64,000 nt of DNA from Candidatus Nomurabacteria bacterium (GTDB taxonomy: Bacteria > Patescibacteriota > Minisyncoccia > Phycocordibacterales > UBA918), in contig JACKGI010000003.1 of assembly GCA_020632015.1 (NCBI GenBank), positions 65,421-129,420 on the forward strand. The letters run 5' to 3'. The first letter of the stretch is position 1. Each line of letters opens with the position of its first letter. The translations under genes were made by a program, and so were the position numbers. Shown piece by piece: positions 4,711 to 22,508 of the stretch. The notes under the pieces are model-generated. The model ran no database searches. It saw only the letters and a list, made by a program, of their open reading frames with translations, and was not told where the DNA came from.

Positions 4711-4757
4711 ACACTAATAAAACAGGCCTCATAAAGAGGTCTGTTTTATTAGTGTGG
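4711..4757. terminator. long hairpin, bidirectional terminator-like
   Basis: ACACTAATAAAACAGGCCTC / GAGGTCTGTTTTATTAGTGT form 20-bp arms with one mismatch and an ATAAA loop, directly after the oxidase gene. Confidence 0.6.
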
Positions 4758-4776
4758 CTAATGCTATAAATGATTA

Positions 4777-6701: not shown

Positions 6702-6879
6702 ATCTATATTAATGACAGAACCACAAACCCTGCATAGCTATGCAAACAACAGAAACGTTATATACTCGCTTAGCAAAGGTTGAGTTTTGCGATATGATTG
6801 CCTTTAATAGCTTGGGAAGCTATTATATTGAACACAACAAAGACCTAACCCGACAGCTTGCTGGCGATATGGTCGTAAA

Positions 6880-6997
6880 ACCCGCTAGAGATCAAAGGAC
6901 TCCCAGTCAGAGTCACTCTAGCGGGTCATACCTGGAAACGGGTATGGGTCTGGCCGAAAGGTTGGATCGCAATGGCTGGGAGCCTTTTGGTATCCCA
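6880..6997 (+). ncRNA. candidate structured RNA or recombination-site region (unclassified)
   Basis: Consecutive stems: CCCGCTAGAG/CTCTAGCGGG enclosing GACTC..GAGTC; CATACC/GGTATG; CTGGCC-GAAA-GGTTGG with G.U pairs valid only on the + strand; CTGGGA/TCCCAG. Confidence 0.3.
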
Positions 6998-7028
6998 GTA
7001 TTTAACAAAATTAAATCCCGCTAGATTT

Positions 7029-7490
7029 ATGACAAATGAACAAACAAAGAAATGTAAGGAATGCCAGATGGACATTCCTAAAAAAGCACGACGGTGTCCT
7101 CATTGCCGAGCTAAACAAGGAATTGGATTGGGAGGACTAATATTAATTCTATTTCTTGGAGGATCTATCCTATCAGTTGTGATGTCCACGATAAGTGATA
7201 TCAGTAGTACCTCTAATACTAACTACGATGTAGGGACATATGTGCCTCCAGTTCGTGAAGGGGCATTTGAATTAGGAACATACAAAGTTGAATCAACTGA
7301 ATTCGCATATATCAATCCAAAAGAAGTTAACCTTTGGCAGTCATATTCTGACCGAAAGAAAGTTGGCTCAGTGAAAGAACACGCTGTGGTTGAGGTAACT
7401 GCTTATGATGAAGCGAATGACTACTGTAAAGTAACGGCTGGTGAGCAGACGGGCTGGACGGCATGTAATTGGTTAGTAAAAGCAGAGTAA
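7029..7490 (+). CDS. zinc-ribbon, TM and SH3b-like domain protein
   Basis: CKEC...CPHC zinc ribbon, one TM helix, C-terminal SH3-like segment. Start moved to ATG 7029 because upstream codons lie in the structured intergenic region. Confidence 0.55.
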   Translation: MTNEQTKKCKECQMDIPKKARRCPHCRAKQGIGLGGLILILFLGGSILSVVMSTISDISSTSNTNYDVGTYVPPVREGAFELGTYKVESTEFAYINPKEVNLWQSYSDRKKVGSVKEHAVVEVTAYDEANDYCKVTAGEQTGWTACNWLVKAE

Positions 7491-7492
7491 TT

Positions 7493-8929: not shown

Positions 8930-9308
8930 GATCAGTTTTGATTAAATTAGCGTATTGAAGTGCTTGTTTAATAGTGTCTTTTTGTTCATCAGATAGCTCG
9001 GTATGTTTTGCTTCTTGAGTACGTAGTGGTTTGCTAGCGAAACGTTGGTGATTATTAGTAAGCCACAGACGTATGGCTGAGAACTTGCGATCTTTGATTA
9101 ACTGAAGCAACTGACTTTCACTCATGTCATTTACGAATGCCACACCTTCAGCTTCCGCTTCGGTAAGTCGTTTAGCAAAGTCTGAGTCTTCTCGTTTCCA
9201 TCGGTAGACAGTATTGCGTGAGATACCAGATTTTTCGCACGCAACTTGTATGATCGGCACTTTCCGTACCTCATCAAGAAATGTATCCATGTGACTAATT
9301 TTCTTCAT
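8922..9308 (-). CDS. HTH protein, probable terminase small subunit
   Basis: N-terminal HTH (SGISRNTVYRWKRE). Overlaps and precedes the large terminase gene. Confidence 0.5.
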   Translation of the reverse strand: MKKISHMDTFLDEVRKVPIIQVACEKSGISRNTVYRWKREDSDFAKRLTEAEAEGVAFVNDMSESQLLQLIKDRKFSAIRLWLTNNHQRFASKPLRTQEAKHTELSDEQKDTIKQALQYANLIKTDHV

Positions 9309-10578
9309 AGAAATTTTTGATTATCTCTACTTTGTTTCCAGTTAGTTTCTCGTATCGCCGACGAGCCAGTTCACAAAAAATCGGCTCTGACTCAAGAGAA
9401 TAGACACGACGATTCAGACTCTCAGCACAGACGAGCGTGCTGGCAGAACCTGAGAACGAGTCGAGAATAATGTCGTTTGGTTTTGTGCACCGCTTAATCG
9501 CTTTCTCATGCAGACTTGGCGGTTTAGATGTTGGATGTTCGTATTCACTAATCTTGATTCGTTTCGAAGCCCAGATATTGCTCACTGATTCAACTAAGTC
9601 ATTCCCAACGGCGACTTCAGCATTCATGATTTCAGTACAGTTCGTCATCTTCTTAGCGAGGTATGGAGATCCTTTTGTTCCGTAGACGCAGAATTCAATT
9701 GCTTTGTTAAAGGCGACAGTAGGGGTAGGGCTGGCATTGTTCTTTAACCAGATGTTGAGTCTACGGTTCTTTATACCTAGCTCGTTATATAAGGTCTGAA
9801 AAATCCAGACCCAAGCTTCATCACACCAGTACATGATGTGAGTATTCGGCGTGGCAACCGATAGCCCTGCTTCAAGTGTCTTGCGAATAAATGATTTGTA
9901 GTCATCGGGACTCTTGTTGTCCTGTACGTTACCTCCATAGTTAGCTTTGTTCCCGACGCCTTTGTTGTAGTCGAGGTTAATGTTGTATGGAGGATCTGAA
10001 TAGATCATGCTTGTTTTCTCTCCATCAAAGAGTACTTGAACAGCTTTTGAATCAGTAGAGTCACCACAGAGGATTTTGTGTTTACCTAGGATTAGCAAAT
10101 CACCTCGTTTTATATCGGTTGTCTTAATTTCCTTGAGTGCTTTTTCTTCATCAAACTCATCATCCTCGCTATGTTTATCTGTATCCCAGAAATCAGCTAA
10201 CTCGATATCTTCAAATCCAGCTTCAGTCAGGAGGTCAATATCGAAGCTCTTTAAAGCGTCGAGATCCCAGTCCCCGCCCAGCTTATTTGAAGATATGAGA
10301 TACTGCTCAAATTCTTTTTCAGTCAGTTTTCGATTAGGAACTCGTACATCAATCTCCTCATCGCCACGACCTAACAACTGCAATACTTTGAGACGTTGGT
10401 GTCCTGCGATTACTCGACCTGTAGTGTCGATGGCTGGTATTTCTACTAAGTTGAATTTACTCAGACTCTTTTTTAGTTTCTCCAACTGAATAGGGCTGAT
10501 AGTACGAGGGTTCTTCTCGTAGGGGACAAGATCACTTACTTTTCGCTTCTGTGTACTCCACTCTAGTTTTTTAGTCAT
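9295..10578 (-). CDS. ParB-like nuclease domain fused to a DNA methyltransferase (N6-A/N4-C, beta class)
   Basis: N-terminal ParB/Srx-like motif (NPRTISP...GHQR). Motif IV SDPPYN is followed later by motif I DSFSGSAST. Confidence 0.85.
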   Translation of the reverse strand: MTKKLEWSTQKRKVSDLVPYEKNPRTISPIQLEKLKKSLSKFNLVEIPAIDTTGRVIAGHQRLKVLQLLGRGDEEIDVRVPNRKLTEKEFEQYLISSNKLGGDWDLDALKSFDIDLLTEAGFEDIELADFWDTDKHSEDDEFDEEKALKEIKTTDIKRGDLLILGKHKILCGDSTDSKAVQVLFDGEKTSMIYSDPPYNINLDYNKGVGNKANYGGNVQDNKSPDDYKSFIRKTLEAGLSVATPNTHIMYWCDEAWVWIFQTLYNELGIKNRRLNIWLKNNASPTPTVAFNKAIEFCVYGTKGSPYLAKKMTNCTEIMNAEVAVGNDLVESVSNIWASKRIKISEYEHPTSKPPSLHEKAIKRCTKPNDIILDSFSGSASTLVCAESLNRRVYSLESEPIFCELARRRYEKLTGNKVEIIKNFYEEN

Positions 10579-10620
10579 AACTATATTTGTTTATTTGTTA
10601 ATAAAAACAAAGCAAACAAA

Positions 10621-10697
10621 AAGCCTGACTTCATACGAAGACTCAACACATCAAATTGACGTGCTCAGGCTTTCTGTATGAAATCAGGCGGGTTAAA
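10621..10697 (-). terminator. Rho-independent terminator-like long hairpin (minus strand)
   Basis: On the minus strand GCCTGATTTCATAC...GTATGAAGTCAGGC is followed by TTTTT, downstream of the 10728-11084 gene. Confidence 0.5.
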
Positions 10698-10727
10698 AAT
10701 TAAGCGGCTCGATTTCTGTATATGTTT

Positions 10728-11084
10728 TTAGAAGAGTAGTCCTGCTTCAAGGAGTTCGATTGCACTGGCATCTTGCCATCGCTTACCCTTAAGCTTCTGC
10801 TGAGCTGAAAGGTCCAACATTTCTTCAATCTCTGAATCGGTACTCTCTGGAAAGAAAACACCTTGGCTAGTCACCTTGCCATCGCGGACTGCATCATTGA
10901 AGTAGTCGGGGACAGCGTATTTGATAGTGACATCACCATCTGATCCGTCGATTGAGACAGACTGCTTTTCTAAGAACACTCTTTGTTCTTCGGAATCACG
11001 CCAGTTTTTCTCAGACTTATTACGCAACTTCCTTGTAGGGAAGGTTAGCGAAGTGAGCTTGAGATTGCTGAAACGTAACTCCAT
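10728..11084 (-). CDS. hypothetical protein
   Basis: Start moved to the internal ATG at 11084. On the minus strand TGCTATTAT lies 6 nt upstream, matching the promoter style of this genome. Confidence 0.5.
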   Translation of the reverse strand: MELRFSNLKLTSLTFPTRKLRNKSEKNWRDSEEQRVFLEKQSVSIDGSDGDVTIKYAVPDYFNDAVRDGKVTSQGVFFPESTDSEIEEMLDLSAQQKLKGKRWQDASAIELLEAGLLF

Positions 11085-11104
11085 AGGAATATAATAGCAT
11101 GGAT

Positions 11105-11143
11105 TTTGTGAAAAAGTAAAAATGCTGTATACTATGTACACCT
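11105..11143 (+). promoter_or_regulatory. promoter (extended -10 TGTATACT) overlapped by the imperfect palindrome TGTATACTATGTACA, a possible LexA-type operator
   Basis: -10 at 11128-11133 with TG at 11126-11127. ATG lies 10 nt downstream. Palindrome at 11126-11140. The operator role is inference. Confidence 0.35.
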
Positions 11144-11761
11144 ATGATAGATAACTTAAGTGATAAGGACCGCAGAGCGTTCTCCTTCATCCGAAACATG
11201 ATCATTAGTCAAGGCAGAAGTCCCTCACTGCGTGAAATAAACACAGTAACCAAAGACAGCTCCCCTCGCTCAGCTGGTCTAGCAATTGACCGACTGATAA
11301 AGGCAGGACTGCTTGAAAGGAAGGGGCGAAATTTGATCCTTACATCTGAACGCGATTCAAGTTCTGTACATACTGTGAACGTAAAACTCGTTAACAGTGT
11401 TGCTTGCGGTACACCAATGCTTGCTGAGGAAAATGTTGAAGCGGAAATCGCTGTATCAACCGCCTTAGCTAAGCCAGGTTTCCAATACTTTCTGCTACGC
11501 GCTAGTGGAAACTCCATGGATCAAGCGGGTATTAACTCTGGTGATCTACTATTGATTCGTCAGCAAACTACAGCAGAGAATGGACAGCGAGTAGTGGCGC
11601 TCATCAATGATGAAGCGACTGTAAAAGAATTTGAAAAGAACGGTGAAGTAGTAATACTCCGCCCACGTTCATCTAATAAGGAGCTTAGACCTATCGTACT
11701 TACCGATAACTGCATTATTCAGGGAGTGGTACAAGCAGTACTCCCTTCAGATATTTACTAA
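11144..11761 (+). CDS. LexA-type repressor (winged HTH + S24 peptidase)
   Basis: N-terminal LexA-like wHTH. S24 catalytic Ser in GNSM and Lys in TVKEF. The cleavage-region motif VACGTPMLAEE has CG where LexA has AG. Confidence 0.8.
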   Translation: MIDNLSDKDRRAFSFIRNMIISQGRSPSLREINTVTKDSSPRSAGLAIDRLIKAGLLERKGRNLILTSERDSSSVHTVNVKLVNSVACGTPMLAEENVEAEIAVSTALAKPGFQYFLLRASGNSMDQAGINSGDLLLIRQQTTAENGQRVVALINDEATVKEFEKNGEVVILRPRSSNKELRPIVLTDNCIIQGVVQAVLPSDIY

Positions 11762-11764
11762 ACT

Positions 11765-11977
11765 ATGGCAAACAAAAGAATTACAGTGACCGGAGAATCA
11801 GATTCGGGTCGTAATACAAATTTTCACGATAATCGCACAGGTGCAGATATGAGCCGTGCTCAATTTGTGAAGAAGATTGAAGATGGTAGTTACGACAACT
11901 ACCACGTTCGGAAGATTAACAATATAAAGACCCCTGTTTCAAATCCTGACGGAAAGGAAGGAAACAATCTTGACTAG
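11765..11977 (+). CDS. small conserved-looking protein of unknown function (weak DUF3892-like resemblance)
   Basis: 70-aa ORF starting 3 nt after the LexA-like stop. The C-terminal ...PDGKEGNNLD recalls the ...NNL motif of DUF3892 proteins; this rests on memory only. Confidence 0.5.
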   Translation: MANKRITVTGESDSGRNTNFHDNRTGADMSRAQFVKKIEDGSYDNYHVRKINNIKTPVSNPDGKEGNNLD

Positions 11978-11980
11978 TAT

Positions 11981-12931
11981 ATGAATTTATCAAATGCACA
12001 ACTACTGAATTTCAAAGACCGAATTAAATTCACCGATGAAGATAAGAGAAAATTCCAACCTCAAATTGACCACTTGGTTTCTTCAATCAAGTCACATATT
12101 TCGGAAAAAACTGACACACGAGTGTTGAAAGTTCTGCAGTGCGGGTCTTGGCGAAAGGGTACTATTTTAAAGCCCAAAGATGATGTTCCTGTTGATATAG
12201 ATCTCGTTTTCTTTTTAGATATTGATCACGAGGATATTGATTCTTTAGAGCAAGCAAATAATTTTATTTTGCCGATTCTAAAAAGCATCTATCCCAAAAA
12301 GGAGGATAAGGATTTCTGGGATAGTCCGAAGACCGCAGGAATTGAATTTGTTGCTTCTGGATTAAATGTTGATGTTGTACCTGTTGGCAAAACGGACTAT
12401 GAAGACTACGTTGCTCAACCTGACAAAGATTCTAGGCAATACTTCACCTCGCCCAAAAAGCAATTGGAGTTTATTTCTGAAAGAAAAGAGGCAAATGTAA
12501 ATTTCACAGCAATCGTTCGTATCTTAAAAAAATGGCGTAACGTTCACGATGTTGATCTACCATCCTTCGCTATTGAACTAATTGTTGCTCATTTAGATAT
12601 AGTGAAAGGAGTTGAAATAGACATACAAGAGGCAATTTTGAGATTTTTGAAATTAGTAAGCAAAAAACAAATGCCTGTAATATTGTTTGACACTCCATAT
12701 GGCAGTTATGCCCATGATGGTGCGCATACCTACATAGCTGACCCTACCAATCAAGAAAATAATATTATGAAGAACTCATCTGATCTTGATTGGAATCGTA
12801 TTCGTATTGATGCTGATACAGCATTTGAAACCCTTTTATTAGCTGAAGAGCAGGATCATATAACCACTACAATAGATTTATGGAAAGAGGTGTTTGGTTC
12901 TAGCTTTAACATTGACCCTATAGAAAATTAA
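11981..12931 (+). CDS. CD-NTase/SMODS-like nucleotidyltransferase (putative signalling-nucleotide synthase)
   Basis: Pol-beta NTase signature QCGSWRKGT...VPVDIDLVFF, a third acidic strand NVDVVPV, and the OAS/cGAS/DncV-type helix KKWRN...LPSFAIELIVAH. Length 316 aa. Confidence 0.7.
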   Translation: MNLSNAQLLNFKDRIKFTDEDKRKFQPQIDHLVSSIKSHISEKTDTRVLKVLQCGSWRKGTILKPKDDVPVDIDLVFFLDIDHEDIDSLEQANNFILPILKSIYPKKEDKDFWDSPKTAGIEFVASGLNVDVVPVGKTDYEDYVAQPDKDSRQYFTSPKKQLEFISERKEANVNFTAIVRILKKWRNVHDVDLPSFAIELIVAHLDIVKGVEIDIQEAILRFLKLVSKKQMPVILFDTPYGSYAHDGAHTYIADPTNQENNIMKNSSDLDWNRIRIDADTAFETLLLAEEQDHITTTIDLWKEVFGSSFNIDPIEN

Positions 12932-12932
12932 T

Positions 12933-13406
12933 ATGACACAATCTGAACTTAATCAACTTTATAAAAGTATTGCTACTGACTTTAAGTTAGCTACACGCAA
13001 GACAGAATTGTGGGAGTTAAATTATTGTTACGACATATTACATGATGTTAAAAAGTTTATTCTTTTTGACTATGCAACAGCAGTGTCTTTAATGCTTTTA
13101 GATAATAATCAAACCACTCTCAAAGCAAAGAAATATCAATTAGGTACAGCTGTACAGCAAGCAAGCGATCGCCCAGGCTCAATCGAATGGGAGGATGGGG
13201 AAGGTAATGTTTTGACTGTGGTTGTCAGTAATACTGACCGGTATTTAAATCTGAGTCACGAGCAGAAATTGGCATTTTATGATGAATTAAGAATTCCTAC
13301 ATGGGGTCCAAGTAGTCTAGATGCAAATTTTTATGGCTTGCCATCTCAAACTGCTAAAAGATACACATCAGGTAATAGTGGCGTGGTACGCACTGATTTC
13401 AATTAG
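12933..13406 (+). CDS. uncharacterised 157-aa protein between the NTase and the 2-TM protein
   Basis: ORF starts 1 nt after the NTase stop and ends 1 nt before the next start. No motif recognised. Confidence 0.6.
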   Translation: MTQSELNQLYKSIATDFKLATRKTELWELNYCYDILHDVKKFILFDYATAVSLMLLDNNQTTLKAKKYQLGTAVQQASDRPGSIEWEDGEGNVLTVVVSNTDRYLNLSHEQKLAFYDELRIPTWGPSSLDANFYGLPSQTAKRYTSGNSGVVRTDFN

Positions 13407-13407
13407 T

Positions 13408-13929
13408 ATGGAAACTCTGCAAAAACTTTATAAAGTGGCTGACCAGACTCGAACAATTCATAGTTTACTTAGGGATAAACTAGTTTTTATTGAAACCCTT
13501 GTGCTTGTGTATGTGACAGTAGGATCAGCGATTTCGGCAATGCTTATATTTGCACCCATATCACCTAGTTACGAGATGTGGGTAGGAATTTTTATAGCTA
13601 GCATTTTTATTGTTAGTTTAATTCCTAACGCTTTTGACTTTAAACAGAAAATTTTGGAAAGGTCGCTAGCTGTTAACGCCTGGGGTAAGTGGGTTCGTGA
13701 CGCAAAATCCTTGTGTGATAACGGTGGTACTTCAGATGAAGTAAAACATATATCTGACCAGTACAAAGTAGTCATGGATGAAACTCCTTTGATACCTGAT
13801 CGTGTATTTAATAAGTACAAGCAAAAGCATCTGCAAAAAGTAGCCATATCTAAAGCACTGAGTGAGACCCCTTTTAGATCAATTAGAGAAATTAAGAAAT
13901 CTTTGAAAAATGATGATTTGTCGAAATGA
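13408..13929 (+). CDS. SLATT-like two-TM effector candidate
   Basis: Start ATG 13408 lies 1 nt after the upstream stop. Two adjacent TM helices (FIETLVLVYVTVGSAISAMLIF, WVGIFIASIFIVSLIPNAF) are flanked by helices. This is the SLATT-type architecture that typically partners SMODS enzymes. Confidence 0.55.
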   Translation: METLQKLYKVADQTRTIHSLLRDKLVFIETLVLVYVTVGSAISAMLIFAPISPSYEMWVGIFIASIFIVSLIPNAFDFKQKILERSLAVNAWGKWVRDAKSLCDNGGTSDEVKHISDQYKVVMDETPLIPDRVFNKYKQKHLQKVAISKALSETPFRSIREIKKSLKNDDLSK

Positions 13930-13947
13930 TAGAAAGATGATTACTGT

Positions 13948-14703
13948 ATGTTTGGATTTTTTAATAAACCATCTAGAAAAAAAGATTTAAAAGCTGTTAA
14001 GGATTTTCTAATTGCTCATTTTCAGCAAATCTATAGCGCTAAGGATAGGATCCCTCCGGATGTCTTTGACGTGTCCATGTTTTTTATAACAGAAGCGATC
14101 CAGCTATTTGACTCAATAGATATTCTGAGCCGAAAAAATCACCTTAGAGGGTGCTTGCCAATTGCTCGAACAATCATGGAGATTTCAATTAATCTTCAAT
14201 ACATATATAGAAAAGATGTAGAACAACGAGCTAAGCTCTTTAAACTTGACTCGATGTATGAGATGAGAAGAAAAGGAGACAGTATCGAAGACGAGTCTAA
14301 AGATAATCCTGTTTATCAAGAGTATATGAAAAAACTTGATGAAGAACTAAAAGACTATAAAAAAGAAAAGAAGACTATTTATGAAAAGGCAGCCGAAGTA
14401 AATATGAAATCATTTTATGTCAGTACATATCGACGTCTGTCTGAATATGTTCACTCGGGCTATAGACCAGCTCGTGATTTTGATGAAGAGGGTCCATATA
14501 ATGATTTTTTAAAGAGGGTGGTATTTACAGATACTGTTATGTTTATGTTGATGGGTCTTAAATCGGTGTGTGAGGAATATGATTTAGATGGCGGATTTAT
14601 GGTTATTGATGATCCTGGCTACAAAGGAATTGTATTCTTTTCCACTAACCCTAAAAAGGAAGAGGAACGCAGTAAAGCTTATGAAGAAAGTAAGAAAAAG
14701 TAA
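13948..14703 (+). CDS. helical protein of unknown function (possibly DUF5677-like)
   Basis: 251-aa ORF in the same operon. Motifs ARTIMEISINLQYIY...RAKLF and LSEYVHSGY. The family assignment is tentative. Confidence 0.5.
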   Translation: MFGFFNKPSRKKDLKAVKDFLIAHFQQIYSAKDRIPPDVFDVSMFFITEAIQLFDSIDILSRKNHLRGCLPIARTIMEISINLQYIYRKDVEQRAKLFKLDSMYEMRRKGDSIEDESKDNPVYQEYMKKLDEELKDYKKEKKTIYEKAAEVNMKSFYVSTYRRLSEYVHSGYRPARDFDEEGPYNDFLKRVVFTDTVMFMLMGLKSVCEEYDLDGGFMVIDDPGYKGIVFFSTNPKKEEERSKAYEESKKK

Positions 14704-14713
14704 TATATAAAAT

Positions 14714-15274
14714 ATGGAAAATAGAGCCCACATGGAGCCAATAGCAAATCGAATTGCAAGATTTCAGAATGGTCATCCGATTGAAATTATCGACACGTTA
14801 TTAAACTCAATTGATAATCATTTCAATAATGAGATCCGTTTGACTATTCAAGAAGATCACTATCAAACATCTTTAATGTTTTTAGGTATTCACGCTGTTG
14901 CGCTCACAATCTCAGAAGGTTTTTTTAATGTAGGTGGTCCAGATGGATATAAAAAGTTCTTAGAAAACTATGTTGATGGAAGCACTTCCGATACTAAATT
15001 TTCAGATATAGCAACAGAAATTCATAATTGGCGTAACATACTTGCACATCAATGGCTTGGTATTGGCGGATATGATATCGGATATGACTATACTCAAACT
15101 GAGGGATGGGTCGAGCGTGACGGAATAAAATTTATAAATCCACGAATCTATTGTGAACACTATCTAGCTGCCTTTAAAGCAGGGGGCAGAATGTGGGATT
15201 ATGACAAGCGTTTTCCTGAAGAAGAATTGAAACAAATCAAAGTGCGATTACTTAAAAAGTTTTTGTCTAAATGA
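14714..15274 (+). CDS. HEPN-domain protein (putative RNase)
   Basis: Canonical HEPN motif R-N-x-x-x-H in IHNWRNILAHQW. Predicted all-helical. Last gene of the operon. Confidence 0.6.
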   Translation: MENRAHMEPIANRIARFQNGHPIEIIDTLLNSIDNHFNNEIRLTIQEDHYQTSLMFLGIHAVALTISEGFFNVGGPDGYKKFLENYVDGSTSDTKFSDIATEIHNWRNILAHQWLGIGGYDIGYDYTQTEGWVERDGIKFINPRIYCEHYLAAFKAGGRMWDYDKRFPEEELKQIKVRLLKKFLSK

Positions 15275-15422
15275 AATGTTCTGTAAAGTTACAGACTAAT
15301 GTAACTATTTAAGATATTGAGAAATCTGTCACTTTTGTCACTTTTTCTTGCGCACGAGGAACTATCAAATTGGATTGTGAATAGTACTAAATCGGTCAAG
15401 CCAGGCTTGACCGTCCACGGTT

Positions 15423-16934
15423 CTAACTCGAGGAAGCCCGCACTTTAGGACAATCAACGGAAACAGAACCCGAGGCCGCCGCCGCGCAAGCGGCGGCGTG
15501 CCATGTGGCGGCCAAAGCAAAGGGCGAACGGCGCGGCACGCACAGCGTGCGCGCGGAAATGGACGGGTTCGAACCGATCTTTTTGAGGAAATCTCGATTT
15601 TCTTCGAGATTTCCTCGTGAAGTGATTTTTCCGGCTTGGTTGAGCGATTTAAGGAAGCGGGTCAAAGGTTCGAACCGATTATCACTCGTTCGCTCAAAAA
15701 CGGCGATTTGCTCTTTGAGGTCGGTCTTGCGATTTAGGAGCACTTGCTTTTTGTTTGTGTACTCGGTGTGTGTAATGGAACCATCAAGTTGGAGATCAAG
15801 CAAAGCGTCGAGTTTCTTCTCGATCGTTGTTATCTCACTTTCGAGTTTTTGAACGGACGACCGTTCCGCGTGTTGGTGGTGCGTGCGTTCTTTTTCTAAA
15901 ATTTGCACGCACGCATCCACCCACGCGGACGGCAAAGAAACTTTTTGGACTTCTTCTCGTACTTGCTCGGCTATTGCTTCCTCGCGCACATAGGGTTGGG
16001 TACATACTCCGCGGCGTTTGGTGCAGCGAAGGTAGTTGTGTCCTTTCTGAGTCTCGGTGGTTATCATGCAATCACACTCGCCACAACGGAACACGCCGCG
16101 GTAACTGTACGGCTTCAGTTTGGGTGCGCGAGTAGTGCGCGACTTGCTTCCCATGATGCTCTGTACCGCATCAAAAAGTTTCTTAGTGATAATCGGTTCA
16201 TGGACTCCGTCATAGAGTTCACCACCATATCTGATAGCTCCGTAGTAGATTGGATTCTTGAGTAGGTACTGATAGTTTGAAATTGAAAGGAGTTTATCCC
16301 GCTTCCCAACCAAGCCAGATTCGTTGATAACCTTTCGGAGTTTCAATAAGGGGTATTCGCCAGTTGCATAAAGCTCAAATGCTTTGCGGATGAGGGTTGC
16401 CTTGTCTGTATCGGGGACAATAGTGCGATTTGTTTTGTCATTCAAATATCCGATAGGTGCATATCCTGGCCATACGCCATTGCGGAGCTTCTGGCGAATA
16501 CCCCTCCTGATGTTCTCCGAAAGGTTATCAACGTAGTATTTGGATTGGCCGAAGGCGATGTTGAGCATGAACTTACCTTGCGGTGTATTTTCAAACCACA
16601 GGGTTGGAAACTTCAAGTACTTCAACTTACCAACATCCAGCAGATAAATAATCTTGCCGCCATCTACACTATTGCGCGCCAACCTATCCGCGTGCCACGC
16701 TACGATACCTTCAACATCGCCGTTCTCGACGCTCGCAAGCATCTCATTGAAAACTTCTCGTCCTGGTTCTTTCGCCGTCTTGCTCTCAACAAACTCACGG
16801 ACGATATGCAAATTCTCTTTTCGTGCAAACTCTCTCAATTCATGGAGCTGCGCCTCTATGCTTAGCACTTGCCTCTGCGCTTCGTCCGTGGACTTGCGAG
16901 CGTAGAGATAAAATTTTTGCGGAGTATCTTTCAT
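15423..16934 (-). CDS. large serine recombinase (rec2)
   Basis: YARKSTDEAQRQVLSIEAQ catalytic region, zinc-ribbon cysteines (RCGECDC...LRCTKRRGVC) and the coiled-coil C-terminus. Start set at the MKDTPQKF ATG. The last ~49 codons run through repeat A' and 14 nt into flanking DNA. Confidence 0.8.
   Translation of the reverse strand: MKDTPQKFYLYARKSTDEAQRQVLSIEAQLHELREFARKENLHIVREFVESKTAKEPGREVFNEMLASVENGDVEGIVAWHADRLARNSVDGGKIIYLLDVGKLKYLKFPTLWFENTPQGKFMLNIAFGQSKYYVDNLSENIRRGIRQKLRNGVWPGYAPIGYLNDKTNRTIVPDTDKATLIRKAFELYATGEYPLLKLRKVINESGLVGKRDKLLSISNYQYLLKNPIYYGAIRYGGELYDGVHEPIITKKLFDAVQSIMGSKSRTTRAPKLKPYSYRGVFRCGECDCMITTETQKGHNYLRCTKRRGVCTQPYVREEAIAEQVREEVQKVSLPSAWVDACVQILEKERTHHQHAERSSVQKLESEITTIEKKLDALLDLQLDGSITHTEYTNKKQVLLNRKTDLKEQIAVFERTSDNRFEPLTRFLKSLNQAGKITSRGNLEENRDFLKKIGSNPSISARTLCVPRRSPFALAATWHAAACAAAASGSVSVDCPKVRASSS
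15438..15571. repeat. inverted repeat A' (reverse complement of 17202-17335)
   Basis: 134 bp aligned by eye, with about 6 mismatches clustered around 15536-15556. Confidence 0.85.
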
Positions 16935-17201
16935 ATGGAAACTATAATAGCCGTCCTTGGTGTACCCAACCCGAGAAGACCTCGAATTGCCCAAAGACGG
17001 CCATTAAAAAAGACCTTCTCGATTTGGTTGGGTACACTCACATTCTATCATACACAGAATAAACAGAGCAAAAATTTTCGGACAATCCAAATACTCAAAA
17101 TCGCTTCACGCCGCTCAAATAGAGCAGACAAAAAGATCGGTTGTTTTGTGCAACAAAACGCGTGCGTGGTTGTGAACCTTAAATATTCACAACAAGCACG
17201 A

Positions 17202-17335
17202 CGAACCCGTCCATTTCCGTGCGCACGCTCTCTGTGCCGCGCCGTTCGCCCTTTGCTTTGGCCGCCACATGGCACGCCGCCGCTTGCGCGGCGGCGGCCT
17301 CGGGTTCTGTTTCCGTTGATTGTCCTAAAGTGCGG
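17202..17335. repeat. inverted repeat A (inner copy)
   Basis: Reverse complement of 15438-15571. Contiguous with repeat B. Confidence 0.85.
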
Positions 17336-17545
17336 TGCTTTTTGAACGAAGTTCGAACGCTCTACGAACAAAATCCGCAAGAGTTTGACTAATAACCCGC
17401 TCAGCCGCGCCCTCGGCTCCACTCCGTTCCGCCGACCGAAACAAACTCTTTTCTTTTCCGCTTTTAACAAGAAAAAATGGGGGGCGAAAAAAATGAAAAA
17501 GCAAAGAAAAGAGATTTGTTTCGGGAGTTCGCGAGGTGCTGCAAA
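17332..17545. repeat. inverted repeat B (inner copy)
   Basis: 214 bp, apparently perfect reverse complement of 20668-20881. This also explains the identical peptides in tracked ORFs 17048-17470(-) and 20659-21003(+). Confidence 0.9.
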
Positions 17546-17570
17546 ATTGGCTAGCTCATATAAAAAAGAA

Positions 17571-17606
17571 AGCCCCGAGCACTCTTGCGAGTACTCGGGG
17601 ACTTGG
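17571..17606 (-). terminator. Rho-independent terminator of the flotillin operon
   Basis: On the minus strand CCCCGAGTACTCGCAAGAGTGCTCGGGG is followed by CTTTCTTTTTT. Confidence 0.7.
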
Positions 17607-17628
17607 TTTAGGTTAGAGGACAGAAGGC

Positions 17629-19017
17629 TTACTTCTCTTCGTCGAGCTGCGTCTGCTCTTCTTCAGTTGGTTGCGGCTTCTCCGGAGTGTCCACCACCTT
17701 GTCTGAAGTCGAGTTGGCCAGCTTGCCCATGATGGACTTGCCGAGCGGGCTCTGTGCGAACGCTTCGACCGCCGAGGCCAGGTGGGTGCCACCCTTGGAA
17801 GTGAATAGGTCCATGACGTTGGTCATCCCTTCGCCAGGCTTACCGGCGTTGGAGATGACCTTGACGTCGGCCGACTGCAGTGCTTTCGCCTGCTCGCTGC
17901 CGACCGTCCGGTAGGCTCCGATCGCCTCGATCGCCCGCAGGTACTCCTGGTACTCGGGCAACGAAGCGATCTTCTCCGCCAGAGCGATCTGGGCATTGAC
18001 CGGCGCCATGAGGATTGCCTGTTCGGCCTCACCTTTAGCGACACCGTTCACACGCACACCCTCGGCTTCACGCTTGGCAGCTTCGAGCTTACCATCCGCT
18101 TCACGGATAGCAACCTCGCGCTGCTGGTCAGCAGCGACAATGGCCGCGTCGCGATCGATCTCGGCTTGTTGCACCTGACCGACTTTGACGACTGCCATTT
18201 CCTTGGCTTTGGTGTTGGCTTCTTCGGTCTTCACCTCCTGCGACGCCTTCTGCTGCGCGATGCCGACGACCTTTTCCTTCTCGGCCGTCCGTTCACCGAC
18301 AGCCTGTTCGGCCTGCTGGCGTTGGATGTCGACTTCACGTTGCGCGGTTATCTCCGCCATTTCGGCCTCACGTTTGTTCGACGCGACTTCCTTCCGGCTT
18401 TCCATCTCGATGTGAGACTTCTTCTTCGCCATGATGTTGGAAATTACGTGGCTGTCGTGGCTGTCACGGATGTCCATGAGCTCCATTGCCTTGACTGGTT
18501 CCACACCCCACTCGGCGAGTTGTTCGGTAACCTCGTTAGTGAAGAGGTCGCCAAACTGTGCGCGCTCGAGCATGATCTTGTCGATCACGTCAGAGGCGAG
18601 CACCTTGCGGACGGCGCCTTGGACGATCAGGTCCAATTGCTCGTCGAGGTCTCCCATACTCGCTACACGCTGTGCAGCACGCGCCGTATCGGCAATCCGG
18701 AAGAACGCCGTAACGTCGACCATGAACGGTACCCGGTCCTTGTCATACGCTTCGTAGCCCTTGAGGCTGCGATCGAAGTTGGACACAGGAAGTTCGATGA
18801 CAGTGACCCCAAACCTCGGAATCCAGCTCGGCCAACGGTAATAGACGTTGCCACTGTTGTTGCCGGTGCCGTAGGGTGTGGTCTTATGGCTACTCTGGAC
18901 GATATGCACCATATTGGTGCTCACGACCTTGCGGAAGAGGATCGCCAGAATGATGACAAAAACGAGCAGGATGCCGACCAGAATGAGTCCGACCGACAAG
19001 AAGGGAATATTTAACAT
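17629..19017 (-). CDS. SPFH/Band-7 flotillin-family protein (FloT/YqiK-like)
   Basis: N-terminal TM helix, SPFH domain, and a long Ala/Glu-rich flotillin-type coiled coil (EAEMAEITAQREVDIQRQQAEQA...). GC-rich codon usage. Confidence 0.8.
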   Translation of the reverse strand: MLNIPFLSVGLILVGILLVFVIILAILFRKVVSTNMVHIVQSSHKTTPYGTGNNSGNVYYRWPSWIPRFGVTVIELPVSNFDRSLKGYEAYDKDRVPFMVDVTAFFRIADTARAAQRVASMGDLDEQLDLIVQGAVRKVLASDVIDKIMLERAQFGDLFTNEVTEQLAEWGVEPVKAMELMDIRDSHDSHVISNIMAKKKSHIEMESRKEVASNKREAEMAEITAQREVDIQRQQAEQAVGERTAEKEKVVGIAQQKASQEVKTEEANTKAKEMAVVKVGQVQQAEIDRDAAIVAADQQREVAIREADGKLEAAKREAEGVRVNGVAKGEAEQAILMAPVNAQIALAEKIASLPEYQEYLRAIEAIGAYRTVGSEQAKALQSADVKVISNAGKPGEGMTNVMDLFTSKGGTHLASAVEAFAQSPLGKSIMGKLANSTSDKVVDTPEKPQPTEEEQTQLDEEK

Positions 19018-19049
19018 GAGTTACCTCTCTTTGTGTCTGTTGTGTGGAG

Positions 19050-19286
19050 TCACAGAAGCGCGACATCCACGGCCTTTTGGACAGGATGTCCGTCTTTCAG
19101 GAAGTTGCCGAGCAAAAACTCAACCTCAAGCCCCTTGGCAAGCTGAATACCTCCGTGAACGGAAGCAACTTCAAACTTTTTCCAATGAAGCTTATTGGTC
19201 TTGTCATTGACTCGGACCTTCCAAACCGTATCGTCACCGACTCTGTCAGAGCCAATAACGAAGCCTTTTAGCCTTACGTTTTCAAT
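19050..19286 (-). CDS. small protein upstream of flotillin (NfeD-like position), no canonical start codon
   Basis: Open frame IENVRLKGFVIGSDRVGDDTVWKVRVND...VDVALL found by manual translation. AGGAGG lies 7 nt upstream of an ATT codon. No ATG/GTG/TTG near the 5' end. Confidence 0.35.
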   Translation of the reverse strand: MENVRLKGFVIGSDRVGDDTVWKVRVNDKTNKLHWKKFEVASVHGGIQLAKGLEVEFLLGNFLKDGHPVQKAVDVALL

Positions 19287-19443
19287 CGTAATTCCTCCTC
19301 TATGTTAAGGTTCAAAAAATTTCGGCATACAAATGCCGAAAACTAATGCTAGTATACACAATATTGTCAATATGTCAAGCCCAAGATTTTGCTACACGGC
19401 TTCAAATAAGGACTAATGTCACACAAATTGATACAATGCGCAT

Positions 19444-20436
19444 ATGAAACAGTTAAAACAACTATCGCCCTTGTTTCCGAAAGATATTGTGACTGATCCG
19501 GTCACAAGCCAGGAAGAGCTTGATGCGGCATTTCAACAGCACGCTGAATACTCGCACACCTACGTACAGACTGCCGTGTACTGGGAAGATCTACGAAAAT
19601 GGTATGAGGATCGCTGGCCCAAGGTGCATAAATATCTTGATAGTGATTTTCTTGATCGCTTCAAGCTAGAACAAGAGCATCAAGCTCGTGTTTGGGAATT
19701 TCATCTTGCAGCGACGCTTCTCGACAAGGGCTTTATACTCAAAGAAAAGGCTTGGGATTATGGACCAGATTTTTGTATAACACTACCGAGCGCAAAAAAT
19801 ATTTGGATTGAAGCGATTACTTGTGATCTGGGAACAGTAGACCCCGTAGAACCACATCCACATATGGAGTCAGGTGTCATCTATTCCTTTGGCGGAAATA
19901 TTGAAGATACGCATCGTCCGCGCGCACTCAGAATAACCAACGCGATAGGGACAAAGTATGAGAAGTTCAAACAATATCTGAAAGACTCAGAGCACAGCGG
20001 TGTCAAGGACAAGGACTGCTTAATCGTCGCAATTAACGGTAGCGCGATACAACATTTTGCTGATCCGAATATGCTTTTCAAACGAGCCGTGTTTGGGCAA
20101 GGGCCTGACGTACTTGTGAAAGTTCCCGGCAAAGAAAAGTTACAGGGTGGTTTTTACAAACCTGTTCCTACAATTCCCAAGAAAGCAATCGGAGGCGAAT
20201 ACAATGTGCCTGCAACATTCATGGAGATGGATGAATTTTCTCAGATCAGTGCGATATTGTACTGTGGCCACACAGTGTCGCATAGCTGGTTAAACGAATA
20301 CAACGTCGGTGATGATTTTTTGTTTGCGTACCACGCAAAGCCGAAGAATCCTATTCCGACAGAGACGTTTCGATTTGGTCGAGGTATTCGTAAAAATATA
20401 CAGACGTCAGCGATAACAGACCAAGAGCAAACATAG
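19444..20436 (+). CDS. hypothetical protein, weak PD-(D/E)xK-like pattern
   Basis: 330-aa ORF containing GPDFCITLPSAKNIWIEAIT (D...E-x-? spacing). TACAAT lies 7 nt upstream of the ATG. The function call is weak. Confidence 0.5.
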   Translation: MKQLKQLSPLFPKDIVTDPVTSQEELDAAFQQHAEYSHTYVQTAVYWEDLRKWYEDRWPKVHKYLDSDFLDRFKLEQEHQARVWEFHLAATLLDKGFILKEKAWDYGPDFCITLPSAKNIWIEAITCDLGTVDPVEPHPHMESGVIYSFGGNIEDTHRPRALRITNAIGTKYEKFKQYLKDSEHSGVKDKDCLIVAINGSAIQHFADPNMLFKRAVFGQGPDVLVKVPGKEKLQGGFYKPVPTIPKKAIGGEYNVPATFMEMDEFSQISAILYCGHTVSHSWLNEYNVGDDFLFAYHAKPKNPIPTETFRFGRGIRKNIQTSAITDQEQT

Positions 20437-20667
20437 TCAAACATGCATGTACGTGGGCACCACGAACTCAAATCGAAGCCACTAAGCGAACACCCGCAAC
20501 ACCGAGCAGCCCACGCGAGCATCTTATGCGAGCAAAGCGTGCGAGGTGTTGCAGGTGTGAGCGGACGTTACATTACCACAAACGCTTGAAGGTGGCGCCC
20601 GAGTGAGCGAGGTGCGGAGAAGTAGCGAACGGTATTGCGTAAGCAATAAACTGGTTTAGTGAGCTAC

Positions 20668-20881
20668 TTTGCAGCACCTCGCGAACTCCCGAAACAAATC
20701 TCTTTTCTTTGCTTTTTCATTTTTTTCGCCCCCCATTTTTTCTTGTTAAAAGCGGAAAAGAAAAGAGTTTGTTTCGGTCGGCGGAACGGAGTGGAGCCGA
20801 GGGCGCGGCTGAGCGGGTTATTAGTCAAACTCTTGCGGATTTTGTTCGTAGAGCGTTCGAACTTCGTTCAAAAAGCACCGC
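20668..20881. repeat. inverted repeat B' (outer copy)
   Basis: Perfect reverse complement of 17332-17545. Ends with CCGC at the junction with AT-rich flank. Confidence 0.9.
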
Positions 20882-20940
20882 TACGAATACTGGTTATCGG
20901 CAGACCTGCAGGCTCTTATTTAGAGCCATATAAAATTGCC

Positions 20941-20981
20941 GTTCGAATCCCTGAGGGGTTACACCCCTCAGGGATTCGAAC
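20941..20981. repeat. perfect palindrome with 19-bp arms containing a T-loop-like TTCGAATCC
   Basis: GTTCGAATCCCTGAGGGGT-TAC-ACCCCTCAGGGATTCGAAC, located between the element's right junction and the HIT promoter. Confidence 0.8.
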
Positions 20982-20999
20982 TTTTGGTATACTCTGGAC

Positions 21000-21359
21000 A
21001 TGAATGACTGTATTTTTTGTGACATTGTAAATAAAACATCTCCAGCAACATTTCTCTACGAAGATGAAGAAGTCGCTGTCATTGAAACAATCGAACCTAT
21101 TTCGAAAGGTCATGTCTTGGTTATTCCTAAACATCACTATGTGAACATTCTTGATATAGACAACATTCTATTAGAGAGAATCACAGCCGTGACTAAAAAT
21201 ATAGCAAAAGGCCAGATTTCTAAACATCATGCCGGTGGCGTTAATGTTCTGCATGCAGCTGGCAAAGCGGCGCAGCAATCAGTTTTTCATTTTCACATTC
21301 ACATTGTACCTCGGTATGAAGATGATAATTTAGATCTCTGGTTTAGAAACAATCTATAA
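21000..21359 (+). CDS. HIT-family nucleotide hydrolase/transferase
   Basis: Histidine triad HFHIHIVPR and HVLVIPKHH. Preceded by TGGTATACT 6 nt upstream. Confidence 0.85.
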   Translation: MNDCIFCDIVNKTSPATFLYEDEEVAVIETIEPISKGHVLVIPKHHYVNILDIDNILLERITAVTKNIAKGQISKHHAGGVNVLHAAGKAAQQSVFHFHIHIVPRYEDDNLDLWFRNNL

Positions 21360-21363
21360 AAGT

Positions 21364-22005
21364 ATGCATATACTTCACTACCACTTCCTGCAGACCAATA
21401 AAGAACTCGGAGAAGTTGCTGAACGAATGCGAGAAATTTTTGATGCAACGATAGAAAAGATAGTTTCACTCACCGAAGAAGTAGAAACAGATATTGTCAT
21501 TCGCCACAGCCCACAAAATGTAATTTCGGAATTAGGTATCTCGGGGCAATACACCAAAGATGCACGATGCATTGATATCTACGTAGATCTCGATAATACA
21601 CATCTCAAAAACAACTTCGAAACAGAAGTTGCACGTACACTTATTCATGAGTACATGCATGTGGTGCGTGAACAGTATGTGCCATGGGAAAACGGGACGT
21701 TGCTAGATTCTCTCATTGCAGAAGGTCTAACCCAAAGCTTTGAGTTAGAGGTGCAACCAGAGCTGCCCCCTTCAATTTACGCCACTTCTTTCACAGAAGA
21801 TGAGTTACAGGATTTGTGGAATAAGGCAAAAGATATCTTAGATCAACGTGGCTGGGCCAATGACGAATGGTTTTTTGGTGGCGATAATATTAAACGTTGG
21901 TCTGGGTATTCACTCGGTTTTAAGCTGGTGCAAGAAAAAATTAAAGAGAGCGGTTTAAAGTCGAGTGAGCTATACAAGTTACCATCAGCAGAGTTTATAG
22001 GGTAG
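21364..22005 (+). CDS. putative zinc metalloprotease-like protein (HExxH; DUF2268-like)
   Basis: HEYMH motif in a 213-aa ORF. The family call is tentative. Confidence 0.5.
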   Translation: MHILHYHFLQTNKELGEVAERMREIFDATIEKIVSLTEEVETDIVIRHSPQNVISELGISGQYTKDARCIDIYVDLDNTHLKNNFETEVARTLIHEYMHVVREQYVPWENGTLLDSLIAEGLTQSFELEVQPELPPSIYATSFTEDELQDLWNKAKDILDQRGWANDEWFFGGDNIKRWSGYSLGFKLVQEKIKESGLKSSELYKLPSAEFIG

Positions 22006-22066
22006 CGGGACTAAATACTTAGTATCGGATGACCCGGAGGGTTCGAGTCCCGGAGCCCCCGCCGTT
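22006..22066 (+). other. tRNA-like 3' fragment (T-loop GGTTCGAGTCC plus acceptor-like CCCCCGCC), not a complete tRNA
   Basis: GCGGG...GGGTTCGAGTCCCGGAGCCCCCGCC lies directly after the stop codon. No anticodon arm could be folded. Confidence 0.3.
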
Positions 22067-22119
22067 TAGAGCTAGCACGAAACACTATGTTTAGTGCTAG
22101 TTTTGTTTATAATAAAAAC

Positions 22120-22416
22120 ATGGCAGTTAAAAAAGCAAATACTGACTTTAGACATCGTATGACCAGTGACATACAGGCAGTATTAGATAAGAATAAAGAT
22201 GTGATGAAGTTATGGGAAAAACTAACCCCACTAGCTCGTAACGAGTGGATTTGTTGGGTAACAATAGTAAAGAAAAAAGAGACTCGTGAAGAACATTTAA
22301 TACGACTGTGCGAAGATTTAAAAAAGGGTAAACGTCGTCCTTGTTGTTGGCCGGGCTGTCCGCATCGTAGGGAGGGCGCAAAGAAATGGTTTGGAAAAAA
22401 TCAAAAAGCAAAGTGA
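22120..22416 (+). CDS. YdeI/OmpD-associated family-like protein
   Basis: W(I)CWVTIVKKKETREEHLIRLCEDLKKGKRR resembles the WI..AK..ETR..R motif of YdeI C-terminal domains. Start at the second ATG. Confidence 0.5.
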   Translation: MAVKKANTDFRHRMTSDIQAVLDKNKDVMKLWEKLTPLARNEWICWVTIVKKKETREEHLIRLCEDLKKGKRRPCCWPGCPHRREGAKKWFGKNQKAK

Positions 22417-22433
22417 TATTTTACTGTTTGTGT

Positions 22434-22464
22434 TAATGGCCGGAAAGCTTCGCTTTCCGGCCAT
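22434..22464. terminator. strong hairpin (14-bp stem) after the YdeI-like gene
   Basis: AATGGCCGGAAAGC-TTC-GCTTTCCGGCCATT followed by an A-run, so it could also act for the minus strand. Confidence 0.5.
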
Positions 22465-22465
22465 T

Positions 22466-22489
22466 AAAAAACCGCAGTTACCTGCGGTT
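22466..22489 (-). terminator. terminator of hydrolase paralog 1
   Basis: Minus strand AACCGCAGGTAACTGCGGTT plus TTTTTT. The same hairpin recurs at 23303-23325. Confidence 0.7.
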
Positions 22490-22508
22490 AGATTTTGTCT
22501 GCTATTTC

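Follow-up and report, generated by a model that had tools for sequence, protein, structure and literature searches.

The stretch of DNA considered here (the window throughout) covers 64,000 nucleotides (nt) of contig JACKGI010000003.1 from a Candidatus Nomurabacteria bacterium, and carries at 15438-20881 a 5.4-kb island built around a gene for a large serine recombinase (LSR). Two pairs of long inverted repeats, A'/A and B/B', bound and subdivide the island, whose internal order is A'-recombinase-AB-cargo-B' (Table 1). An earlier reading of this stretch made from the letters alone (the sequence-only reading) had described an abrupt switch to GC-rich DNA at its borders. The rise is indeed present, from 33-40% GC in the flanks to 45-62% in the island, but the enrichment is uneven, with 19150-20350 reaching merely 39-46%.

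Anatomy of the island

A repeat search returned exactly the two pairs that the sequence-only reading had picked out. The arms A' and A are 134 nt long and 97% complementary; in place of the six or so mismatches originally estimated there are four, clustered at positions 103, 104, 106 and 116 of the arm when numbering starts at the core. B and B' are 100% complementary over 214 nt, as had been supposed. The overlap of the inner arms A and B by GCGG (17332-17335) and the termination of both outer arms in CCGC, at the border to AT-richer DNA, were likewise confirmed on the sequence. All remaining repeats in 14000-22500 are at most 34 nt long and at most 85% identical, and repeats of the length and identity of A and B cannot have arisen by chance in 8.5 kb. 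The attachment sequence attP can be written as B'-CCGC-A', the island ends A' (left) and B' (right) being its two halves. The inner A-GCGG-B segment (17202-17545) is a complete inverted copy of this junction situated upstream of the recombinase gene, and it thereby splits the island into a recombinase module between inverted A arms and a cargo module between inverted B arms.

Independent contigs with host genes on either side of the island extend into A' or B' by 30 nt (k-1 for Logan) or 87 nt and end there, which implies that both junctions are covered by reads from at least six samples (Logan and JGI). Datasets containing the element derive from activated sludge (e.g. SRR14234111/112/133 and ERZ27309364, and the HK-STAS Nanopore data from which CP060229 comes). 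Moreover, the closed chromosome CP060229 (Ca. Nomurabacteria HK-STAS-PATE-25) contains the entire 5.4-kb element in the same internal order at 99.4% identity, with flanks unrelated to those of the window.

Table 1. Coordinates of the island, its parts and its insertion sites in the window
Feature	Position	Strand	Basis
Left half of insertion site 1, tRNA T-loop-like pseudo-site GGTTCTA-N12-CCGC	15419-15441	+	Motif count; alignment with true tRNA-Ser targets
Recombinase gene, integrated state, 503 aa (P0121 = MCB9818383.1)	15423-16934	-	
Core CCGC, left junction (attL); crossover within these 4 bp	15438-15441	.	Sole bases common to attP, both pseudo-sites and both tRNA-Ser sites
A' arm, right half of attP; minus strand encodes the last ~44 recombinase residues before the core	15438-15571	.	
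U, non-repeated region upstream of the recombinase gene	16935-17201	-	
A arm, inner inverted copy of A'; 4 mismatches, passed on to every element copy	17202-17335	.	
Proximal B arm; A and B form the intact inner junction copy (attP, inverted orientation)	17332-17545	.	
Spare recombinase tail CFLNEVRTLYEQNPQEFD and stop codon, in frame with the A arm	17336-17392	+	
Terminator-like hairpin and promoter-like site around the SPFH gene	17573-17600; 19351-19378		Motif scan
Cargo: SPFH/Band 7 protein, 462 aa	17629-19017	-	Domain search
Cargo: 80-codon open reading frame upstream of the SPFH gene; no canonical start, ATT after AGGAGG	19050-19292	-	
Cargo: 330-aa open reading frame with no Pfam or NCBIfam match	19444-20436	+	
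Distal B' arm, left half of attP; minus strand 20821-20877 holds the tail codons completing the recombinase once the ends are joined	20668-20881	.	
Core CCGC, right junction (attR)	20878-20881	.	
Insertion site 2 (secondary), GGTTCGA-N12-CCGC in a tRNA-like pseudo-gene; empty in the window, occupied by the same element in L092-L094	22040-22062	+	

The recombinase

The open reading frame between A' and A, in which the sequence-only reading had recognized a serine recombinase, encodes a 503-aa protein with the Resolvase (PF00239, 1.6e-21), Recombinase (PF07508, 1.4e-13) and Zn_ribbon_recom (PF13408, 4.5e-07) domains, i.e. the three-domain organization and the size (~450-600 aa) of LSRs. The YxRxS motif with the catalytic serine (Y11, R13, K14, S15) does not vary among the aligned sequences. 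The best NCBIfam scores, to XisF (102 bits, cut-off 375) and CcrB (100 bits, cut-off 900), lie far below the respective cut-offs, and identity to phage integrases or to any characterized LSR does not exceed 29%; the protein is thus an LSR by its domains but falls in no named family. A viral origin was considered and set aside, given this low identity to phage integrases and just five weak loci in IMG/VR.

Mobility and target recognition

The identical element, with the same ends, occurs at four places, spread over three hosts from related metagenome datasets: site 1 of the window, site 2 of the window, and two distinct tRNA-Ser(GCT) genes, in each case at the 3' end of the gene. Contigs of a 99.8%-identical host (L092-L094) carry it at site 2, 1.2 kb rightward of the position occupied here, and together with the window they provide a pair of empty and occupied sites. 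The uninterrupted version of site 1 reconstructed by the sequence-only reading, GAGGAAGC-CCGC-TACGAATAC, did not turn up, as the exact 36-mer had no match in JGI metagenome contigs. In CP060229 an intact tRNA-Ser(GCT) gene adjoins the A' end with its last bases. These displacements are mirrored in the 90% cluster of the recombinase, where the same protein (100% amino acid identity) is found with four different C-terminal ends: …KVR/ASSS in the window copy, …KVR/RVWDLNP at the tRNA site of CP060229, …KVR/RVRDSNP at a different tRNA-Ser site (L006-L008), and …KVR/GLRDSNPPGHPILSI, which reads into window positions 22015-22062.

An alignment around the core shows that CCGC is the only sequence common to attP, the two pseudo-sites and the two tRNA-Ser sites. 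There is no target duplication beyond this shared CCGC, and the att sites are hybrid, as in other LSR elements. Each of the four targets carries GGTTCRA on the left of CCGC, at a distance of 12 nt, and the pattern GGTTCNA-N12-CCGC has three matches in the 64 kb against 0.08 expected, two of which are the insertion sites themselves. Rightward of the core the insertion sites have no related DNA; in combination with the shared left motif this indicates that the recombinase appears to recognize just the tRNA-like half of its target. Recognition of one half only, made up of the tRNA T-loop and acceptor end, would account for insertion in tRNA-like pseudo-sites as well as for the stacking of elements in tandem. 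In attP the corresponding motif CGTTCGA stands 17 nt from CCGC, rather than 12 nt as in the targets. Rutherford and colleagues reportedly noted in 2013 that the zinc-ribbon contact of LSRs is shifted 5 bp outward in attP relative to attB, and the two spacings would fit such a shift. We conclude that window positions 15438-20881 are the integrated form of a mobile LSR island, a recently active member of its family that normally targets the last bases of a tRNA gene.

Several smaller features concern the same sites. The tRNA-like pseudo-gene that holds the empty site 2 (22005-22065) is called by neither ARAGORN nor Rfam; to the right of its core CGTTTAGAGC resembles the start of the A' arm, ACTTTAGGAC, and the pseudo-gene may be the scar of an earlier insertion. 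A hairpin with a perfect 19-bp stem lies at 20941-20981, 60 nt to the right of the island, with arms that read like a tRNA T-loop and acceptor 3' end (GTTCGAATCCCTGAGGGGT); this hairpin could represent either a terminator or what is left of an older tRNA-targeting insertion. The target pattern GGTTCGA-N12-CCGC is also present within the recombinase gene itself, at 15553-15575 (minus strand), at the distal A' boundary in the codons for KIGSNPSIS.

A family with the same plan

Using the alignment of homologues as query against one genome per species, we recovered 80 related loci, mostly from metagenome-assembled genomes of Patescibacteria and Elusimicrobia, with recombinases 51-68% identical to that of the window. 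Homologues of the recombinase number ~7,600 in total. An inverted repeat flanks the recombinase gene in 57 of the 80 (~133 nt where both arms are complete), so that the inner AB copy expected by the sequence-only reading is also seen in homologous elements. Both repeat pairs are complete in 16 loci, all of them situated at the 3' end of a tRNA and with variable defence cargo, and most of the remaining loci are cut by contig ends at these very repeats. One arm of the A-type repeat is the 3' end of the recombinase gene up to the core, and the other lies 90-280 nt upstream of the start of that gene. The B-type repeat measures 150-380 nt, with its far arm at 1.3-8.5 kb and its near arm abutting the upstream A arm through an overlap of 4-6 nt, which falls on the terminal bases of the tRNA. 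In 62 of the 80 loci the 3' arm of the recombinase gene overlaps the 3' end of a convergent tRNA gene by 4-6 nt. In the nearest clade the targets are the four tRNA-Ser isoacceptors; elsewhere they are tRNAs for Gln, Asn, His, Asp or Glu.

The distal boundary of the A arm is the same in every clade, inside the codons of the invariant KKIGS/N (…GGTT/CGAAC…); this boundary is also the centre of the palindrome GGTTCGAACC in all clades. The A'-recombinase-AB-cargo-B' plan is a family trait, and the family is large and apparently undescribed: full-text literature searches, incomplete in their coverage, returned no description of an LSR element in which attP has an inverted copy inside the element or the recombinase truncates itself. 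The island is an LSR integrative element of unusual, conserved design.

The cargo of the family is variable and consists mainly of type I, III and IIG restriction-modification systems, GmrSD, Mrr, RadC, HTH regulators and ATPases. The cargo of the window (17629-20436) is atypical in having an SPFH/Band-7 gene, a small open reading frame and a 330-aa protein without a family in place of restriction-modification genes.

The crossover lies inside the recombinase gene

The crossover falls within the 3' end of the recombinase reading frame, which runs across the core, and in the integrated gene of the window the last four residues (ASSS) and the stop codon are supplied by host DNA. When A and B are translated together in the phase of the recombinase, the frame is open in every clade and stops 17-21 codons past the core. 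It specifies a tail with the consensus [R/L]-C-[F/L]-L-x-x-[V/I]-R-T-F-F-[E/Q]-x-N-P-…, which in the window reads …KVR-CFLNEVRTLYEQNPQEFD before the stop codon. As tail and stop codon are encoded in B, the gene is complete only when A' is joined to B, as at the proposed circle junction. In the integrated state the tail codons are left at the far end of the island, and the recombinase runs into host or tRNA-antisense sequence, the C-termini of the type …WRRGRDSNPR… in homologues being the translated antisense strand of a tRNA T-arm. Among ~107 homologue clusters, 71 have such tRNA-antisense tails and at least 19 are full length with the conserved tail.

The pattern of change in the tail is that of a coding sequence. 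The synonymous share of codon differences is 24% in the recombinase frame versus 13% and 4% in the other two, variability increases from codon position 2 through position 1 to position 3, and the codons for Thr, Phe, Asn and Pro wobble. In one locus (L080) a synonymous CGA-to-AGA change at an Arg codon breaks the DNA motif and keeps the residue. Frame, position and the L080 change point to constraint on the tail at the protein level. Two direct motifs of ~22 nt in B, initially considered as additional binding sites, are explained by the tail codons (CFLxxVRT and FFEQNP). The notion that the inner A+B frame encodes a small protein of its own was also dropped, as there is no conserved start codon and the first one in the window is a GTG 17 nt inside the arm.

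Alternative states in related elements

A second form of the element exists in which the recombinase gene is full length. In locus L108 a tRNA-Gln gene is followed by an A arm on the same strand, U, the full-length recombinase gene, A' joined to B, and the cargo; the same form is found at tRNA-Ser(CGA) in L116 and at tRNA-Gln in L078. The recombinase gene is here co-oriented with the tRNA. The A arms are only 86.5% identical in L108 and 88% in L116, and owing to this divergence the second form in these loci is no assembly ambiguity. The single visible cargo gene of L108 is directed toward the junction, which offers thin evidence for integration via the other junction copy rather than a simple flip.

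Cargo inversion is documented best in the P0081 element, which several samples contain with the cargo in one or the other orientation (L095 and L099 versus L096-98 and L100-101). The inverted repeat concerned is 56 nt long and 89% identical, far below k-mer length. Further cargo isomers, L103 versus L104 and the window versus L006, are weak evidence, with repeats that exceed k. Four loci (L066, L095, L109 and L115) are tandem arrays containing a full-length recombinase gene whose own A' arm is joined to the B arm of a neighbouring element, followed by the neighbour's cargo; this hybrid junction restores the tail of the resident recombinase. Such arrays are the outcome expected if an incoming circle targets a resident attL, and they fit recognition of the tRNA half. 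L115 was at first entertained as a circular contig, but its junction B arm and inner B arm are different alleles, which makes it a tandem array; L095 and L109 are arrays as well.

Two loci show further rearrangements. In L022 a recombinase module lies between identical inverted tRNA-Ser(GGA) genes, at 9645-9734 (plus strand) and 11474-11563 (minus strand), and its two A arms differ as alleles near the core; this could be a chromosomal inversion or duplication produced by the inner junction copy recombining with a tRNA site. In L095 a degenerate element beside tRNA-Ser(CGA) (11499-11610) has lost the recombinase module, leaving the cargo and an attL scar, and the deletion is bounded by CAAAATCC microhomologies located in the B arm and in the A' arm, respectively.

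A proposed mechanism and its rivals

That this is a mobile island with exact ends and a tRNA or tRNA-like target, that the recombinase frame crosses the crossover point, that the tail and the spare junction are conserved, and that isomers and arrays occur in nature, we regard as highly probable. The best overall explanation of these facts, to which we assign a probability of roughly 0.7, is an LSR island with a split recombinase gene and an inverted spare junction, for which we infer a circular form and a switch. The mobile form would be a circle with two inverted copies of the junction. Integration via the copy at the 3' end of the recombinase gene would yield the common form, in which the tail is lost and the enzyme would be switched off or attenuated. 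Integration via the other copy, or inversion of the recombinase module between the A arms, would yield the rare form with a full-length recombinase. The inner copy would then be a spare part with which an integrated element could rebuild a complete recombinase gene. A second element arriving at the retained tRNA half-site would likewise complete the resident gene and build a tandem array, and recombination between the B arms would flip the cargo. RecA-dependent inversion would account for the length of the arms, for their usual identity of 97-100% in copies that appear young, and for their decay elsewhere; alternatively, the recombinase itself might perform the flip by acting on the inner attP and attL. 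For the narrower claim that the inner copy serves as a re-arming switch of the recombinase we would put the odds slightly below even.

The central geometric idea of the sequence-only reading, in which one of two junction copies is opened by a crossover at CCGC, has gained support from the same ends at four sites, the order conserved in the family, a recombinase gene that is complete solely with A' joined to B, and relatives in alternative states. Its further suggestion that the adjacent recombinase could flip either arm holds in so far as isomers of both the recombinase arm and the cargo exist in relatives; the agent may be the recombinase or RecA. The predominance of tail-less loci (62 versus 2-3) fits a ratchet in which active forms move on and amputated ones stay, and it fits a plain preference for one junction equally well.

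Several observations weigh against the split-gene and spare-junction explanation. The second form is seen in only 2-3 of about 65 loci, and its rarity implies that elements seldom flip or use the second copy, or that selection disfavours this. The excised-circle junction B'A' predicted by the sequence-only reading, searched for together with the flipped junction through the A'-specific variant bases, has no match in JGI contigs, the 7-member protein cluster of the window recombinase includes no full-length variant, and all junction-type reading frames that could be placed belong to tandem arrays or the second form, none to circles. The same four A/A' mismatches are found in all independent insertions and have outlasted at least four transpositions, which shows that a move neither rebuilds nor re-homogenizes the arms; regeneration of the arms at each transposition in the manner of long terminal repeats was discarded on this ground. 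Arms of 134-380 nt would be needless if site-specific recombination at a short core sufficed, and homologous recombination or gene conversion explains their length and identity only loosely. The tail codons overlap the left half-site of attP, and their conservation may be partly at the DNA level. In an AlphaFold2 model of a full-length homologue (P0006) the mean pLDDT (predicted local distance difference test) is 66.8, and the tail is predicted as a helix at only ~55. Finally, a lower activity of the tail-less enzyme and a role of the tail in catalysis are both hypothetical.

The strongest rival holds that the inner AB copy has no function, being a tolerated by-product, such as an ancient inverted duplication under gene conversion, or an operator bound by the recombinase, with the isomers as incidental homologous recombination. 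The rarity of the second form is in its favor, as are several elements with arms decayed to 86-92% while the recombinase frame stays open, and the P0081 cargo inversion, which occurred in a 56-nt imperfect repeat lacking the core and thus was not mediated by the recombinase at the core. Nevertheless, the same boundaries are kept across clades with recombinases 51-68% identical and six tRNA targets, the A arm always starts in the KKIGS/N codons and ends at the core, and the A+B frame is open in every clade. Limits as exact as these are unusual in neutral relics, and we consider this rival unlikely. A considerably more improbable reading, mooted in the sequence-only account, treats A'-recombinase-A and B-cargo-B' as two independent abutting transposon-like units, each with its own terminal inverted repeats. 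It draws on the fact that each module does have its own inverted repeat and that the modules invert independently in relatives, and on the recombinase module of L022, which stands alone between two inverted tRNA-Ser genes. Against it, the 5.4-kb composite has moved whole to four sites with identical ends and duplication limited to CCGC, which also separates it from insertion sequences and from transposons with terminal inverted repeats; the modules are always together and in the same order in the family, the recombinase frame needs B, and the cargo modules contain no transposase.

Slightly less probable again is a small plasmid of the 2-micron type, in which flipping would serve copy-number amplification and integration would be secondary. 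The geometry of the reconstructed circle matches such a plasmid exactly, but neither a replication gene nor an origin-like feature is shared by the cargo of the 16 complete elements, every copy that could be placed lies in a chromosome, no contig turned out to be circular, and the family is almost absent from viral contigs. A more remote reading would have a folded single-stranded copy present a double-stranded attP, as in the CTX phage or integron cassettes. In a single-stranded circle AB and B'A' would anneal to form a stem of 344 bp centred on the core, and Patescibacteria are thought to depend on DNA uptake. Serine recombinases, however, cut all four strands of duplex sites, and cutting such a stem would leave hairpin-capped chromosome ends; moreover, the A/A' mismatches have gone unrepaired between transpositions, and no genes for single-strand replication or transfer were found. 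The assembly or amplification chimera that the sequence-only reading had kept as an alternative now has a negligible probability. Perfect inverted repeats above k-mer length do break short-read assemblies here, yet at least six independent read sets have yielded contigs that cross the junctions, the same order is seen in the closed chromosome of another organism, and dozens of relatives have the same architecture, many with diverged and unambiguously assembled arms.

Comparison with known elements

The three-domain recombinase of the island is shared with Tn4451 (TnpX), Tn5397 (TndX), SCCmec (CcrAB) and the fdxN element (XisF), which are also alike in having short att ends sharing few bases, no target duplication, an implied circular intermediate, and a single LSR for insertion and excision. 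In Tn4451 expression of the recombinase depends on the joined ends; in the island the joining of the ends governs the completeness of the gene. No element of this group is known to possess a full inverted internal copy of the junction, a recombinase frame split by its own crossover, or targeting of tRNA 3' ends via one half-site. Archaeal integrases of the SSV1 and pTN3 type target tRNA genes and partition their own gene by a crossover within the integrase frame. The island resembles them in that its crossover lies within the recombinase frame, with tail and stop codon in B. The SSV-type enzymes are however tyrosine recombinases with the gene cut mid-way, whereas the protein of the island has serine recombinase domains only, loses just its last 17-21 codons, and keeps a spare copy.

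The invertases Gin of the Mu G segment, Hin, Cin and Pin also have a serine recombinase gene beside DNA bounded by inverted repeats, and in Mu, P1 and e14 inversion exchanges C-terminal coding ends through a crossover located within a gene. These are small enzymes of ~190 aa acting on 26-34-bp sites with an enhancer and Fis, and the ends they swap are those of tail fibres. In the island family, by contrast, the enzyme is an LSR of ~500 aa, the repeats measure 134-380 nt, one repeat partner is the end of the element, and the gene end that is swapped is the recombinase's own; with 503 aa and repeats of 134 and 214 nt the window element thus falls outside the Hin/Gin type. The yeast 2-micron plasmid (FLP/FRT) is similar to the reconstructed circle in that two inverted repeats, each with the recombinase target, alternate with two unique regions, and the recombinase is encoded in one of these. 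It differs in that FLP is a tyrosine recombinase and the plasmid a nuclear replicon with amplification, while the island has a serine enzyme, no replication functions that could be found, and chromosomal copies.

The tycheposons of Prochlorococcus are small islands inserted at tRNA genes, which may be stacked in tandem and carry defence or adaptive genes as cargo; a minority of them use LSRs. The family described here shares insertion at tRNA sites, a cargo module and tandem arrays. According to the tycheposon preprint, 910 of 937 tycheposons (97%) use tyrosine recombinases, many carry replication genes (primase, helicase, polymerase), and the hosts are marine, whereas the island has an LSR and no replication genes that were found, and the hosts of its family are Patescibacteria, Elusimicrobia and similar. 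A term search of that preprint gave no internal inverted junction copy or split recombinase.

Implications

A crossover inside the recombinase gene means that the state of the DNA, whether circle, integrated, flipped or tandem, sets the version of the enzyme that is made, which suggests control without an additional protein. LSRs are prized in genome engineering as simple, one-directional enzymes. If the tail governs activity, the family would embody a new principle of directionality control and a compact, engineerable switch, and the spare inverted junction would keep a way back open. The family is also a widespread vehicle for restriction-modification and other defence genes among ultra-small Patescibacteria, whose gene exchange is poorly understood. 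A broader proposition, which we would sooner doubt than accept, is that these elements form an unrecognized class of tRNA-linked carriers of defence cassettes, common in Patescibacteria and Elusimicrobia and regulating themselves by DNA topology. Loss of the tail would be the off switch and the spare junction or a neighbour would rebuild the gene. With only the tRNA half of the target recognized, the attL would stay a live target, and recombination between attP and attL would be symmetric and reversible without a directionality factor, so that arrays could be built, shuffled and dismantled.

Other features and neighbouring DNA

ARAGORN and an Rfam search at the gathering threshold had no match inside 15438-20881, no dedicated covariation test having been run, and A or B as a known structured RNA was abandoned. 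Counts in a promoter and terminator scan were not above those of shuffled sequence, and the scan located no promoter for the recombinase gene.

The DNA to the left of the island (4714-15437) looks like another mobile or defence island, with genes for a terminase-like protein, an N6/N4 methyltransferase, an S24/LexA-like repressor, SMODS and bacterial HORMA proteins (CBASS-like) and DUF5677. A second serine recombinase of 431 aa is encoded here at 5406-6701 (minus strand), and the matching Logan contig shows the Resolvase, Recombinase and Zn_ribbon domains in it. Adjoining this gene, 140 nt from its start, is a match to the LOOT RNA (RF03000) at 6842-6968 (plus strand), with 76.9 bits where the gathering score is 46.4. 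The ends of this region might be marked by a weak direct repeat of 31 nt (6633-6663 and 15328-15358, 74%).

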